A stretch of 63,188 bases of DNA, filler included, from Reclinomonas americana ATCC 50394 (Eukaryota), in assembly GCA_048213135.1 (NCBI GenBank). It is 4 parts of 4 records of this genome, joined end to end, with 100 filler letters (N's around TTAATTAATTAA, not from the genome) between each part and the next. Parts side by side here need not be neighbours in the genome. Positions count along the whole stretch, not along the records: positions 39,149 to 61,113 come from AFZH01018009.1; 3 more parts are not named here. One strand, 5' to 3'. Below the pieces are notes generated by a model. It did not search any database. It was given only the letters and a program-made list of their open reading frames with translations, and had not been told where the DNA came from. The first letter of the stretch is position 1. Each line of letters opens with the position of its first letter. A program made the translations under genes and the position numbers. Below, in pieces: positions 51,303-56,919 of the stretch.

Positions 51303-53107
51303 CTACACACGAATAGTCCTTCTTGGAGGGTCTGCAATGTCCGCTTGCACGACTTGTGGCAGAGCAACCGGCGGCGCCTCGACTTTCTCTCCTTGTTGAG
51401 GTGCGGTTCGAGGGGCCACGGTGCGGTGACGCCGGCGGAACAGAAGCCAGCTGCCGAGGAGGAGGGCAACGGCGGTCGTCAGTATGGCTGCTGCAGTTGT
51501 CCAGTATGACAGCCAGTCCAGGGGGACGAATGACTTGACTGTCGACAGCAGCCAGTCCCACAGTGTTAGCGGTGGTGGGGTTGATTGTAACAACGACCTA
51601 GGCCACTCCCACCAAGAGACATCCACAATCCCCGGAGCCATTCCGGCGATTGGAGCGCCAGCCATTAATGAAAACCCCAGCAGCGTTATGTTGCTGGCAA
51701 TGTGCGTCAACAGACTCGCGTCGGCATAATTCGTCAGGCCATCACCCACGACCATGTCGTCACTCTCGTGTACACTTGGCTGCGTCGCAGGAGCCGCTGA
51801 TGTCGGCTCGATCTGTCCAGCCTGCGGCTGCGCGGCAGTTGGAGTGTACTGTGTGATAACCTCACTCACGTTCGCCTCTCCTGTTGACTGAGTTGTGGAA
51901 TTATGACTGACACCGGTACGGCCGTTCATCCGTAGCACCTCCTCCCCACTACTCAGCAACCACACCCGCACAGTGCCGTCAGAACTTCCGCTGATAATGT
52001 GCAGACCATCGCGAGTGACGGCAACAGAAATGACTCCTCCAGTGTGTCCCTCCAGCCGTCGAACTTCTTCGCCACTCGCCATAGACCACACACGCACTGT
52101 GTTATCATGACCGCCGCTCACTACATGCTGACCATCGGCAGTGATGGCGACCGAGAAAGAAGTGTGTACCTCCAACCGGCGCACTTCCACCCCGCTCGCC
52201 AATAACCACACTCGCACTGTCTTGTCAAAACTTCCGCTGATTATGTGCCGACCATCGGGAGAGATGGCTACCGAGAGTACCACATTGGTGTGCCCCTCAA
52301 ACCGTCGCACCTCGTCGCCACTGGCCAGCGACCACACTCGCACTGTATCATCCCAACTCCCGCTCACCACATGCTGACCATCGGGAGTGACAGCGACAGA
52401 CCTCACCCAGCCAGTGTGGCCTTCCAGTCGTCGCACTTCCTCTCCACTCGCCAGTGACCACACACGCACTGTCCTATCATCACTGCCACTCACAACGTGC
52501 TGGCCATCGGGAGTGACAGCAACTGAGAGCACAGCATCGGCGTGTCCCTCCAGCCGACGCACCTCCTTGCCACTTGCAAGTGACCACACACGTACTGTCT
52601 TGTCCACACCCCCACTGACAACGTGCTTGCCATCGGGAGTGAAGACGACAGACGACACCCTTCTAATGTGCCCCGCCAGCTGTCGCACCTCTTCGCCACT
52701 TGCCAGTGACCAAACATGCACTTTCAAATCATCACTGCCACTCACAATGAACTGGCCGTCGGAAGAGACGGCGACAGATGTAACGAAGAGGGAACCCGTG
52801 CCCAGCAGCCTGTGCGACGAGTGCGCGTGAGAACCGCGCAAAACCCCGCTGTCACGCAGAGACACACACGAAGCAAGGCGCCGATTGCAGAAACATAAAC
52901 ATACACACACTCACACTCACACTCACATGCACACACACGCACACACACACTCACATGCACACACACACGCACATGCAAATGCACACACTCACATGAAACA
53001 CACCTTGAGTTTGACAATATTTCCACCTCAGTGTCGCACACGGCAAGGCACACACACGCGGCGATCGCCACGCAAGCGACCACCAGAACGCGAGTCTGCT
53101 GGCACAT
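51303..53107 (-). CDS. Signal peptide + 7 WD40 repeats + Ser/Thr/Pro stalk + TM (paralog A)
   Basis: Exon 1 53107-53004 (104 nt, MCQQTRVLVVACVAIAACVCLAVCDT), phase-2 intron, exon 2 from 52809. Repeats of GHxxxVxSVAVTPDGQHVVSGSxDxTVRVWSLASGEEVRRLE; TM AAAILTTAVALLLGSWLLF followed by RRRHR. Confidence 0.88.
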
Positions 53108-53550
53108 TCCGCTCTCTTGTTCTCACACTTGAGGGGGTGAACAGGACTCGTCGACGTCGCTCGTGAAAGAACTGTGCCTTTCGCTTTCCGTTCTCATGTG
53201 AGCCTTGTCACCTCAACAGGTGCAGAACCGCCTTTAGGAAACCTTGACTTCCAGCTTCTCCGCTGACTTGTGTCATACACCCTTCCCCTTTCGTCAACCC
53301 TTGCGGTTGCACTCCTCGAAATCATTCCCAGGGAAACGATGACCAAACCGTCAAAACACTATCGTGTATGTGCCGCCTGTACTCTTTGTGTCGTAGACAG
53401 AGAATGCCACCACCACCACCAACATCGTTAACAGCTTCACCAACAACAAAATTAATTACGACAACAAAACAACAACATGATACTTATCGACTCCTCTCGC
53501 CCCACTCTTCCCACCGCACCAGGCCTCATTTTTTTCGCCTCCATCCTCTA

Positions 53551-54680
53551 TCACCACCACAGCCAACCTCCCACAAAAACCGCCACCACCGTCACCAACA
53601 ACACCGCCCACGCCGCACCGGAAAACTTCGCATGCTCCGGCCGCCAGTCTGTCCACACCCGCACAGTGCCGTCCAAGCCCCCACTCACAATACGCTCGCC
53701 ATTGCCATCGACGGCAACAACCAGCACCCATTCCGTGTGCCCCGCCAACCGTTGCACCTCGTCTCCACTCACCAGCGACCACACTCGCACAGTGCGGTCC
53801 ATGCTCCCGCTCACCACAAACTGACCATCGTGGGTGACGACAACGGAGGACACCCAATGCGCGTGCCCCTCCAGCCGTCGCACCTCACCACTGGCGAGAG
53901 ACCACACACGCACTGTGGTGTCGTCACTGCCACTCACAACAAAGTGACCGTCGGGAGTCACCGCGACGGCCGACACTGTGTCCGTGTGACCCTCCAACCG
54001 ACGCACTTCCTCACCGCTCTCCACGGACCACACGCGCACGGTCTTGTCACCGCCCCCACTCACTATGTGCTGACCGTCGCGAGTGACGGCGACAGACCAC
54101 ACCTTGCCAGTGTGACCCTCCAACCGCCGCACCTCCTGGCCACTGGCGAGAGACCACACCCGCACTGTTGCATCATAGCTGCCACTCACAACGTGCTGCC
54201 CGTCGGGAGTGACAGCGATTGAATTCACAGTGGTAGTGTGTCCCTCAAACCGCCGCACCTCTTCGCCGCTCACCAGCGACCACACGCGCACAGTCCCATC
54301 AACACTTGCGCTCACCACGTGCCGGCTGTCGGGAGTGATGGCGATCGAACGCACCTCTCCAGTGTGTCCTTGCAGCCGGCGTACTTCTGCTCCACTCGCC
54401 GCCGACCACACTCGCACGGTGGTGTCGAGACCGCCGCTGACGACGAACTGATGGTCGGGAGTGATGGAGACGGATGTGACCAAGGAGGCGTGTTTCCCCA
54501 CTATCCTGTGCGCGTAGGGTAAGGAGGTGTGAGAGGCACATGCAAACGAAGGGAATGTGCTGTGATCTCTTCACACCTCGAGTTCGATAATGATTCCGCC
54601 TGCGTGTCGCACACGGCGAGGCATGTGCACACGGCGATCATCATGCAGGCCACCACCAGAATGCGAGTCCGCAGGAGCAT
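53551..54680 (-). CDS. Signal peptide + 7 WD40 repeats + terminal hydrophobic helix (paralog B)
   Basis: Exon 1 54680-54577 (104 nt, MLLRTRILVVACMMIAVCTCLAVCDT), exon 2 from 54505; ends AAWAVLLVTVVAVFVGGWLWW-stop. Confidence 0.88.
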
Positions 54681-54853
54681 TTCTCTCTCTCTCTCTCTCT
54701 CTTGTGCTCTTGCAAAATGACTGGATGCATACGGACACGTGGTCGTCGTGGGACAAGTGGCTGCATTTTTTCCGACAGCCTTCCTGATCTCTTCGGCTTG
54801 TTGTCATGCACCAAGCGGCAAGACTGTGCGATCTTCACCCGAAACCCGCGATA

Positions 54854-55049
54854 CTGACACTACTTTGCGCCACGAAATCCTTTCGAGGCCAACACGCGTC
54901 TGATTGGCTTTGCCTCCTGAAAGGGAAGATGACTGTTGGCGAAGTGATTATGTGTTCTGGTATATTGTTGGTGTGCCAATGTCATTGTCGGCAAGGGATT
55001 TGCGGGCGTTTGTCGCATTATTGGAGTGTGGTGAATGATTTGTTGTTGT
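54854..55049 (+). repeat. Left arm of a ~195-bp inverted repeat (partner 60458-60652)
   Basis: ctgacactactttgcgccacgaaatcc...gcaagggatttg...gtggtgaatga is the reverse complement of 60458-60652 with scattered mismatches. Confidence 0.9.
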
Positions 55050-55366
55050 CTCTGTTGGTTACACCCCTATCTTTCCACAACCGAGACATCACGTCAGCAG
55101 CGCAACCTTCGTGCATTTGATCATCTCGGTGGATTGTGCTCACTGCGACAGAGAGAGCGAAAGCAAGTAACCCAGTTGTCGATACGTCGACGTCGCATCC
55201 GCGCCTGGTCACCAAGCGACGCTGCGATTCCTCTCGCCGACCACCATCGTTCAGGGCAGTGATTCCCAAGGCCTGGGCACTCCTACTTGACGAACACATT
55301 GAGAGACAACAAATACACGCGGCAACAGAGGTGCAACGCAACCTGCCATTATCTCCCAGTCAAAAA

Positions 55367-56919
55367 TTACACACGCAGCGCTCTCCTCGGCGCCTCCTGC
55401 TGACCGGCTGCGGCCTGTAACACTTGTCGCGGCGCGGCAATCGGCACGCACACTGCCTGCCCCGCAACCGGTCGCGGTACTGGAGAGCGTGCAAGTTGTG
55501 GTCTGGGGTCAGGCTGGAATAGAATCCAGCTAACAAACAAAAAAATCACGACAGTCAGCAACATGAATGCCACGGAGGCTGAGATCCACCAGTCTGCCAG
55601 CCACGCGGCATTGTCATCAATGCCCGCCATCGCCGACGGAGTGGCAGCAAAAATTTGCGTTGTCTTGGCAGACTCGCCCGTAGTGGGGCGTGGAGTCGAG
55701 TCATGACAAGTAAACGTGTCCTCCTCTGGTATCTGTCGCACCTCTTCTTCACTGGACAGTGGCCACACGCGCACAGTGTTGTCAGCGCCCCCACTTATTG
55801 CGTATTGACCCGTGGGGGAGATGGCGACAGACAGTACTGCGCCGGTATGGCCCTCCAGCCGTCTCACCTCCTTGCCAGTTGCCAGCGACCACACCCGCAA
55901 TACCGAGTCTTCACCCCCACTCACGATGTACTGGCCATCGGGAGCAACAGCGACGCAATACACTGCACGTGTATGTCCATCCAACTGTCGTACCTGCTCT
56001 CCAGTCGACAGCAACCACACTCGCACTATCCCGTCGGCGTCCCCAGCTACAATGTGCAGGCCATCGGGGGTACAAGCTAAACATGTCACTATCGAAGTGT
56101 GCCCCATCAACCGAATTTCTTTTGCACCCATCAGCGACCACACATGGACAGTGTTGTCTGTACCTCCAGTTATGACGTGCTGACCATCGGGAGTCACGGC
56201 GACTGAAAACACCAAGATTGGGACACTCTTCAGTCGTCGCCAGTCTCTGCCAGTAGCCAGCGACCATAGTCGAACAGTGCCATCATCATCACCGCCGATC
56301 ACGACGTGCTGACCGTCGGGAGTAATGGCGACAGACATCACCGTTCCATTCAACTGTCGCGAACTGACACCTTGCCGTCGCCGGTTCGAAAACTGCGGCG
56401 CCCCGTCTCTGGTCACCCGCGACCACACACGAATTGTCTTATCGCTGCCCCCGCTCACTATATGCTGACCATCGGGAGTGACGGCCACTGAAAGCACTTG
56501 GCATCGAGTATTGCGTCCCGTCGAATTCAGCCGTTGAAACTCTTCGCCGCTCTCGATGGACCACACTCGCACAGTCTCGTCATAACTCCCGCTCACAATG
56601 AACCGGCCGTCAGAAGAGATGGCGACGGATGTAACAAAGGAATCGTGCTCCCCCACCAACCTGTGCGGAATACACGCAGGTGTGAGAACGACAGTATGCT
56701 GAATCGATAGCTCTTTCGCTCTCCCTCTCTACCTCTATCTCCCTCTCGCCCCCTGTCAGTCCCCCTCTCATTCTCCTTGTCGCACGCACACACACACACA
56801 CGCACACGCACACACCTCGAGTTTTTGAATGTTGGCACGTGAGTGTCGCCCACGGTCAAGCACGCGCACGCAAAGATCAGTACACTCGTCACCACCAGAA
56901 CGCGAGTCGGCTGTTGCAT
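55367..56919 (-). CDS. Signal peptide + 7 WD40 repeats + stalk + TM (paralog C, more diverged)
   Basis: Exon 1 56919-56816 (104 nt, MQQPTRVLVVTSVLIFACACLTVGDT), exon 2 from 56660; TM WWISASVAFMLLTVVIFLFVSWILF; tail ends APRRALRV. Confidence 0.88.

Follow-up and report, generated by a model that had tools for sequence, protein, structure and literature searches.

Three head-to-tail genes, here called A, B and C, occupy the minus strand of positions 51303-56919 in a 63,188-nt stretch of DNA from the eukaryote Reclinomonas americana ATCC 50394 (GenBank assembly GCA_048213135.1), and each encodes a propeller of seven WD40 repeats between a signal-peptide-like N-terminus and a C-terminal hydrophobic helix. 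The whole stretch, hereafter the window, joins four parts of four records of this genome with filler between them, and the three genes lie in the part that comes from AFZH01018009.1 (positions 39,149 to 61,113). Our best explanation, to which we assign a probability of about 0.6, is that the three proteins belong to the secretory pathway, cross the membrane once and present the propeller on the exoplasmic side as a binding platform. The first exon, of 104 nt, would supply the N-terminal signal sequence with which the chain enters the endoplasmic reticulum (ER), and the entire propeller would end up exoplasmic, in a lumen or on the cell surface. A stalk, disordered and rich in S, T and P, would lift the propeller off the membrane in A and C and would be followed there by a transmembrane helix and a cytosolic tail of 44-49 residues; B would be a short form, its terminal helix serving as a bare membrane anchor or possibly as a glycosylphosphatidylinositol (GPI) signal. 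This architecture is unusual and internally well supported, and it shows no sign of the diversification that had been proposed for the three genes in a first-pass annotation of the same DNA.

The gene models rest on a comparison of the three copies. Three stop-to-stop frames with WD40 repeats (51303-52910 in A, 53551-54570 in B and 55367-56728 in C, of 535, 339 and 453 codons) each have upstream of them a block of exactly 104 nt, which starts with ATG and ends in AG at a GT donor (Table 1). The intervening introns have the same 3' end, CACAG, in all three genes. When the exons are joined by their coordinates, the coding lengths are 1611 (A), 1059 (B) and 1398 nt (C), every one divisible by 3, and the predicted proteins have 536, 352 and 465 aa; the ends of the region are exact, position 51303 being the final base of the A stop codon and position 56919 the A of the ATG of C. 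Exon 1 has the identical phase (phase 2) in the three copies, with an Arg codon spanning each junction, and the exon-2 frames have no in-frame ATG before the propeller, the first Met lying in blade 6 of A, blade 6 of B and blade 3 of C. Exon 1 is 69-77% identical among the copies (z 3.6-6.7 against shuffles), several of the differences being synonymous, whereas the flanks, 200 nt upstream and 200 nt downstream of each gene, reach a z of only -0.5 to 1.2 in the corresponding inter-copy comparison. An independent repeat search of the window recovered three 133-nt blocks at the exon-1 sites as one family (D14), and the combination of exon 1 with a WD40 frame is present in 3 copies only within the window. 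Because exon 1 is conserved, its flanks are not and exon 2 has no upstream ATG, the comparison argues for a two-exon model in which exon 1 is probably spliced to exon 2 in each gene. The three head-to-tail two-exon paralogs described by the first-pass annotation are therefore recovered here from their frames, the conserved first exon, the GT-AG introns and the intact joined coding sequences. The 71-nt intron of B is ordinary for this genome, since a neighbouring gene in the window for a peroxisomal-type ABC transporter (ABC_membrane_2, plus strand) has two GT-AG introns of ~60 nt, at about 9838-9896 and 10058-10118, as judged from frame changes between its Pfam-matching frames. Low-complexity runs, (GT)n or (GA)n-like, make the first introns of A and C longer than that of B, and the three have the longer 3' end CGCACAG in common.

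Each of the three proteins has seven stretches that match Pfam PF00400, the exact number claimed beforehand, with E values of 7.7e-75 (A), 4.5e-79 (B) and 4.6e-69 (C) and scores of 244.6, 258 and 226.4 bits against a gathering cutoff of 27. AlphaFold2 was run on the exon-2 proteins of A and B with a 30-row alignment, so the fold evidence covers these two; it gave closed seven-bladed propellers for both, in answer to the structure prediction that the first-pass annotation had called for. For B, the mean predicted local distance difference test score (pLDDT) is 95.4 and the predicted template modelling score (pTM) 0.89, with 27 strands in seven blades running directly into a helix at residues 290-316 (exon-2 numbering, as for A below). 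The model of A has seven blades and 28 strands, with a pLDDT of at least 90 in 290 of 501 residues; after the propeller come a stretch of pLDDT <50 at 299-363, a low-confidence helix at 364-382 and helices at 416-427 and 430-462. Foldseek with the B propeller returned 7big, 5yzv and 2ymu as top matches, with a template modelling (TM) score of 0.86-0.87 to 7big and 5yzv, and among solved structures the bacterial propeller of PkwA (5yzv), the designed WRAP-T propellers and 2ymu, a repetitive propeller, come nearest. C has the most diverged propeller: GH is lost in three of its units, and in units 2 and 3 the loops before strand a are longer and bear N-x-S/T sequons. Neither a NACHT nor a HET domain appears among the best 25 Pfam families for each exon-2 translation, all of which are propeller families, and the full protein consists of signal sequence, propeller and helix, in line with the earlier statement that no NACHT domain is present.

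Signal and topology were assessed with our own hydropathy and charge counts. Kyte-Doolittle (KD) averages over 19 residues peak at 2.78 (A), 2.55 (B) and 2.22 (C) at the N-terminus, and at 2.09, 2.28 and 2.82, respectively, near the C-terminus. Each N-terminus has a six-residue n-region of charge +1 or +2 and then an 18-residue uncharged run, after which small residues occupy -3/-1 (A..C in A, A..C in B, T..G in C) ahead of a conserved D-T; small residues at -3 and -1 are the rule for signal peptide cleavage. These features, with the conservation of exon 1, uphold the signal-peptide-like N-terminus of the first-pass annotation, and the hydropathy peaks together with the AlphaFold2 helices in A and B do the same for the C-terminal membrane helix; the C-terminal helices of A, B and C also align with one another. 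Given a signal-like N-terminus and a C-terminal helix, the propeller is predicted to be exoplasmic whether the N-terminal segment is cleaved or kept as an anchor. Its placement outside the cell or in the lumen accordingly stands as a prediction, and surface display is likewise predicted. What the analysis shows is the gene structure, the domain content, the fold, purifying selection and the pattern of conservation; we infer splicing, topology, location, ligand binding and the function of the signal peptide.

The helix is flanked, over 15 residues on each side, by charges of 0/+5 (before/after) in A and -3/+2 in C, and because the positive charge follows the helix, the tails of A and C are predicted to be cytosolic. 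These tails share a PRRxxRV-COOH end (51306-51330 and 55370-55394, minus strand) and have diverged over the remainder, which suggests that the conserved end contacts cytosolic sorting machinery. The stalks of A and C are made up to 44-47% of S, T, P, Q and A. B has lost both stalk and tail: an 11-aa linker precedes its helix, and two consecutive stop codons follow. A GPI signal combines a signal peptide with a terminal hydrophobic segment that comes after small omega-site residues and a polar spacer; B has the terminal 21-residue hydrophobic segment and small residues, S-G-A, but almost no spacer ahead of the hydrophobic stretch. Mature A and B contain zero cysteines, a state found in 3% of 237 retrieved homologs and in 1 of the 25 that are shorter than 420 aa, and this fits an oxidising compartment. 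Export of the repetitive WD40 class seems feasible, since 32 of the 237 homologs have a hydrophobic N-terminal segment. Plastid or mitochondrial targeting was considered and rejected, because the propeller begins ~12 residues past the hydrophobic run and leaves no room for a transit peptide.

Several observations weigh against single-pass proteins with an exoplasmic propeller. The uncharged run, at 18 residues, is long if the signal peptide is cleaved, and the segment could instead stay in place as an anchor; B, which ends with the helix itself, gives no post-helix charge information. In A there is another hydrophobic segment, a borderline one (KD 1.53 near residue 412, a low-confidence helix), and the topology of the A tail changes if this segment spans the membrane. 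The predicted ectodomain of C has five cysteines, an odd number. N-x-S/T sequons number 3 in A, 0 in B and 2 in C, by a rough estimate no more than composition predicts, and for want of enrichment they were dropped as topology evidence. Hydrophobic segments at both the N- and the C-terminus occur together in none of the 237 retrieved homologs and in none of 62 assessable metagenome loci (80 in total, 18 without a usable frame), and the last 205 aa of A, used as query in an exhaustive HMMER search, matched none of 1.84 billion representatives.

Exon 1 keeps its length, phase and hydrophobic character across the copies, no other start codon precedes the propeller in A, B or C, the 44-49 residues past the helix in A and C are too many for a tail anchor, and mature A and B differ from 97% of their relatives in being Cys-free. 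All of this renders improbable a cytosolic propeller anchored by its C-terminal helix, of the Sec12/PREB or tail-anchored type, with exon 1 unused or no signal sequence, even though nearly all PF00400 propellers of eukaryotes lie in the cytosol or the nucleus, B has its helix at the extreme C-terminus as tail-anchored proteins do, the splice junction is read from sequence, and no homolog with the A/B/C layout turned up in the 237 proteins and 62 assessable metagenome loci. Sec12/PREB has no N-terminal signal and carries positive charge on the propeller side of its C-terminal helix; A, B and C, in contrast, have a hydrophobic N-terminus, and in A and C the positive charge comes after the helix and not before it.

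We favour the cell surface over an internal compartment, at about 2:1 in our own weighing, because the layout of A and C matches part for part those published in the available portions of the reports on PKN, a brown-algal fertilization factor, and GEX3, an Arabidopsis sperm-surface protein, apart from the mucin-like stalk, which GEX3 lacks. With the same topology the three proteins could instead be residents of the secretory/endolysosomal system that act as cargo-sorting receptors, the propeller binding luminal cargo and the tail binding coat adaptors; we regard this as possible but unlikely. That A and C retain PRRxxRV-COOH in an otherwise divergent tail would be in keeping with a signal for sorting or ER export. 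A C-terminal valine has a role in ER export, and sortilin/Vps10 is a cargo-sorting receptor with a luminal propeller. B, however, is tailless, neither a tyrosine nor a dileucine motif was noticed by eye in the A and C tails, for which no formal search was made, and a stalk as long and mucin-like as that of A is more characteristic of surface proteins, PKN for example, as far as the published excerpt describes them. GlVps of Giardia, also a cargo-sorting receptor of this kind, cuts both ways: the accessible text presents a membrane protein whose WD40-like domain is luminal, with a single transmembrane helix and YQII in its cytosolic tail, and it also reports a protein without signal peptide whose WD40 match is weak (PMC3423367).

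Our best explanation assigns the propeller the part of a stable binding platform. Unit statistics were computed on 42-residue units, with 12 full units from A and B. Fifteen of the 42 positions are invariant, among them H14, S32, D36 and W42, the stabilising hydrogen-bond tetrad, each unchanged in 12/12 units. Entropy exceeds 2 bits at seven positions (6, 16, 17, 19, 28, 35 and 37) and reaches 2.6-3.3 bits at 17/19 and 35/37, which flank the invariant V18 and D36, respectively, with a spacing of 18 residues. The nearly fixed framework with set variable positions noted in A and B at first pass is thus confirmed, and the hexapeptides and tetrapeptides quoted for it are all found in the units. 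The top-face hot-spots differ among blades and paralogs, and each paralog may therefore have its own ligand; the proteins would then act in adhesion or recognition, or else as cargo receptors. The WD40 strand order is taken as the usual one; with it, the helix of B, 11 residues past strand c of blade 7, would turn the bottom face of the propeller to the membrane and the variable top face outward.

The same variable positions had led to the proposal of a HET-E-like diversifiable module serving as a variable receptor or antigen system. In the available text on the Podospora proteins, HET-E codons 7/9 around position 8 and 25/27 around position 26, on the top face, are under positive selection, and HET-E repeats attain up to 100% identity through concerted evolution (PMC1805685). 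The positional half of the analogy holds, since the hot-spots of A and B coincide with these selected codons; the diversifying mechanism does not. DNA identity between A and B units is 61-77%, the proportion of synonymous differences (pS) is 0.53-0.58, near saturation, and framework dN/dS (the ratio of nonsynonymous to synonymous divergence) between units is about 0.10-0.15. Units of the same index in A and B resemble each other no more than other pairs do (pS 0.583 vs 0.569), their proportion of nonsynonymous differences (pN) is 0.64, and nearly all hot-spot positions differ between them. The proposed check for inter-repeat gene conversion came out negative: no conversion tracts were seen, and in 153 unit pairs compared in register identical runs reach 21 nt at most, within the null from codon-shuffled units (mean maximum run 23.9 nt, 95th percentile 31). 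At five top-face positions pN is 0.71-0.72 and pS 0.62-0.75, values that are both saturated, come from sites picked after seeing the data and so lend no support to an excess of nonsynonymous change.

The variation pattern is, moreover, class-wide. In 49 of the 237 homologs, those with at least 5 exact 42-residue units (282 units), the highest-entropy positions are 16, 17, 19, 35 and 37, and the entropy profile of these unrelated repetitive WD40 proteins correlates with that of A and B at r = 0.84. Conserved frameworks with diverse hot-spot sites are likewise described for repetitive WD40 proteins of prokaryotes, fungi and protists in the portion of Hu et al. 2017 at hand (PMC5587647), where classes are set by internal repeat identity, HR at >=0.7 and MR at 0.4-0.7. 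Internal unit identity is 0.70 in A (borderline HR), 0.65 in B (MR) and 0.48 in C (MR), with a unit definition that differs from that of Hu et al. as given there. A fixed framework with a variable top face is therefore a property of the whole repetitive WD40 class and by itself no sign of an adaptive diversity generator. An actively diversifying, HET-E-like receptor or antigen family, renewed by repeat shuffling and top-face positive selection, might still be argued from the coincidence with HET-E codons, the pN of same-index units, the tandem arrangement of the genes and the positive selection reported, in the excerpted account, on the distal face of PKN in brown algae. Set against old, divergent units and paralogs, the missing conversion tracts, the class-wide pattern shared with unrelated proteins, the absence of a NACHT or HET domain from the Pfam matches and a mere three copies within the window, it is in our view highly improbable, and the variable receptor or antigen family of the first-pass annotation is not retained.

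Divergence among the genes tells the same way. Pairwise amino-acid identities of A, B and C are 62%, 52% and 52%, nonsynonymous divergence (dN) between genes is 0.30-0.41 and synonymous divergence (dS) 1.2-1.5; by these values, A, B and C are old tandem paralogs, and they are under purifying selection. Their GC content at third codon positions (GC3) is 0.59-0.71, like that of neighbouring genes, and since dN/dS is low both in the framework and between genes and GC3 is host-like, the genes look functional and native. That A, B and C might be unexpressed relics or mis-modelled frames without present function draws on the lack of any similar architecture in the protein and metagenome collections searched; three two-exon frames that stay intact despite an inter-copy dS >1, a dN/dS well below 1, and conserved splice sites and junction codon make this very hard to sustain.

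Relatives were sought in protein, metagenome, viral and prokaryote collections. In a word-index search, A retrieved generic WD40 arrays with, among the 120 matches listed, a highest query cover of 71% and a highest identity of 62%; B likewise retrieved generic WD40 arrays, at 55% identity at most. The best word-index identities, 50-62%, belong to metagenomic proteins, several of them labelled kinase/WD40, and the clusters obtained from ESM Atlas were generic WD40 ones, none above 0.86. The exon-1 DNA pattern had no match in metagenome contigs, and a scan of viral contigs found no relative. The metagenome scan yielded 80 loci of at most 52% identity. Among them, the contigs Ga0257110_* (L044-L067; GC 0.67-0.72) encode proteins of ~350 aa with an Arg/Ala-rich conserved N-terminus and one WD40 propeller with 35-43% identity to A; they look like a separate intracellular family, unrelated to A, B and C. 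The prokaryote genome scan gave 30 loci, in myxobacteria, other deltaproteobacteria, cyanobacteria, Entotheonella, Acidobacteria and others, with a best full-length match of 49% identity and no recent donor visible among them. Given the host-like GC3 and the ordinary eukaryotic genes around A, B and C, a bacterial origin of the propeller, though possible, would not be recent, nor could it be demonstrated here. Our literature searches brought up no eukaryotic protein with an ectodomain of canonical PF00400 repeats and yielded only CRINKLY4, GlVps, GEX3 and PKN; PfWLP1 was rejected as an analogue, being intracellular and without signal peptide.

Table 1. Positions in the window of the exons, introns and predicted protein segments of genes A, B and C.
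Gene	Feature	Positions	Strand	Length	Remarks
A	Exon 1	53004..53107	-	104 nt	Phase 2; ATG, GT donor, conserved vs B and C
A	Signal-peptide-like segment	53036-53107	-		Codons 1-24
A	Intron	52810..53003	-	194 nt	GT...CACAG; mostly (GT)n-like low complexity
A	Exon 2 including stop codon	51303-52809	-		Stop codon 51303-51305
A	Seven-bladed WD40 propeller	51921..52808	-	296 aa	Seven PF00400 stretches, AlphaFold2
A	Stalk and juxtamembrane region	51495..51920	-	142 aa	S/T/P/Q/A-rich; three N-x-S/T sequons; one borderline hydrophobic segment
A	Predicted transmembrane helix	51438..51494	-	19 aa	KD 2.09; AlphaFold2 helix 430-462; flank charges 0/+5
A	Predicted cytosolic tail	51306..51437	-	44 aa	PRRxxRV-COOH end
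B	Exon 1	54577..54680	-	104 nt	Phase 2
B	Signal-peptide-like segment	54609-54680	-		Codons 1-24
B	Intron	54506..54576	-	71 nt	GT...CACAG
B	Exon 2 including stop codon	53551-54505	-		
B	Seven-bladed WD40 propeller	53650..54504	-	285 aa	Seven PF00400 stretches, AlphaFold2, Foldseek
B	C-terminal hydrophobic helix	53554..53616	-	21 aa	Very end of the protein; KD 2.28; AlphaFold2 helix 290-316
C	Exon 1	56816..56919	-	104 nt	Phase 2
C	Signal-peptide-like segment	56848-56919	-		Codons 1-24
C	Intron	56661..56815	-	155 nt	GT...CACAG
C	Exon 2 including stop codon	55367-56660	-		Stop codon 55367-55369
C	WD40 propeller region	55730..56659	-	310 aa	Seven PF00400 stretches
C	Stalk	55586..55729	-	48 aa	S/T/P-rich
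C	Predicted transmembrane helix	55517..55585	-	23 aa	KD 2.82; flank charges -3/+2
C	Predicted cytosolic tail	55370..55516	-	49 aa	PRRxxRV-COOH end as in A

Neighbouring genes in the window encode CFAP65, the peroxisomal-type ABC transporter, a rhomboid, a PTEN-like protein, CCDC22 and an ankyrin protein. The CFAP65-like gene is a multi-exon flagellar gene at 13490-19090 (minus strand) with several Ig-like CFAP65 Pfam matches, and it implies that the organism is flagellated at some stage. A tandem array at 49219-50260, with a period of ~160 nt and a (CT)n run in each unit, is located between the 3' end of A and the CCDC22-like gene; TRF reports 4.2 copies with 76-77% matches at 49219-49896, and repeat families D7 and D9-D12 extend the copies to about 50260. 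Upstream of gene C, at 57658-58704, dispersed repeats of 45-62 nt (families D13, 8 copies, and D16, 3 copies) stand beside (CA)n runs and may represent a satellite or a short interspersed element. Antisense to B, at 53248-54222 (plus strand), there is an open frame of 324 codons, with shorter similar antisense frames over A and C; these are probably a by-product of repetitive GC-rich codons and not a gene. An Rfam scan of the window found no family.

In eukaryotes, the canonical GH-WD repeat is regarded as an intracellular scaffold, and a WD40 propeller that passes through the secretory pathway would, if our reading is right, widen the known uses of these domains. The disulfide-free, tetrad-keeping propellers of A and B would then offer a compact, engineerable extracellular binding scaffold. 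A, B and C would also make a third independent case of a surface protein composed of signal peptide, seven-bladed propeller, stalk and transmembrane helix, beside PKN and GEX3, both of which serve cell-cell recognition. Going further, one may speculate that a bacterial-type, self-stabilising WD40 propeller was turned into the ectodomain of a surface recognition receptor, convergent with PKN and GEX3, with paralog-specific partners (gamete, kin, prey or pathogen) and possibly as part of a larger family that shares the signal-peptide exon; we hold this fuller scenario only tentatively, as an unlikely one at present.

Among known systems, the repetitive HR/MR WD40 class, which is common in bacteria, fungi and protists, to which the propeller belongs and which includes PkwA of Thermomonospora curvata (5yzv) and 2ymu, provides the best sequence and fold matches to A, B and C (2ymu_A, E 5.3e-157; 5yzv, TM score 0.87 at 41% identity). 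Its members are mostly multi-domain proteins (kinase, NACHT, others) or longer arrays, with best identities to A, B and C of 49-62%, and the three genes differ from them in a spliceosomal intron and a host-like composition. HET-E, HET-D and the other HNWD proteins of Podospora resemble A and B in their 42-residue units, near-fixed framework and top-face variation flanking a conserved V and D. Unlike A, B and C, the available description has them intracellular, with HET and NACHT domains, concerted evolution and positive selection (PMC1805685); the three proteins, for their part, have no NACHT domain, a unit DNA identity of 61-77%, no conversion tracts and a predicted exoplasmic location.

Propellers on the far side of a membrane offer closer parallels in layout, the closest published ones being PKN and GEX3. 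GlVps is, like A and C, a protist membrane protein for which a luminal WD40-like propeller, one positive-inside transmembrane helix and a cytosolic sorting tail are proposed, but in the part of the report available it differs from A, B and C in having no signal peptide, a weak WD40 similarity (superfamily E 2.7e-10), the YQII tail motif and a mainly ER location (PMC3423367). CRINKLY4 receptor kinases are single-pass proteins with a signal peptide and an extracellular seven-bladed propeller called WD40; as the accessible pages describe them, they are unlike A and B in having one disulfide per blade, BLIP-II and UVR8 as nearest folds and a cytoplasmic kinase (bioRxiv 10.1101/2020.08.10.245050). 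Of the PKN/GEX3-like architecture, A and C show a single predicted transmembrane helix with a positive-inside tail and, like PKN, a mucin-like stalk (disordered in the AlphaFold2 model of A), whereas B has neither stalk nor tail. GEX3 has a layout similar to that of A and C, and the excerpt at hand gives it as plant-specific, with a function shown by genetics and without a mucin-like stalk (PMC13589550). PKN, a female-gamete factor, has its signal peptide, seven-bladed propeller, mucin-like stalk, transmembrane helix and tail laid out as in A and C, and with variation concentrated on the membrane-distal propeller face under positive selection in brown algae; it departs from A, B and C in a propeller not termed WD40 in the available text, long distal loop insertions and an acidic tail, and its function and positive selection are demonstrated there, while A, B and C are known from sequence alone (bioRxiv 10.64898/2026.02.20.706836). 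Altogether, the architecture of a surface propeller receptor is already known, and what would be new in A and B is its construction from a Cys-free, internally repetitive WD40 propeller.

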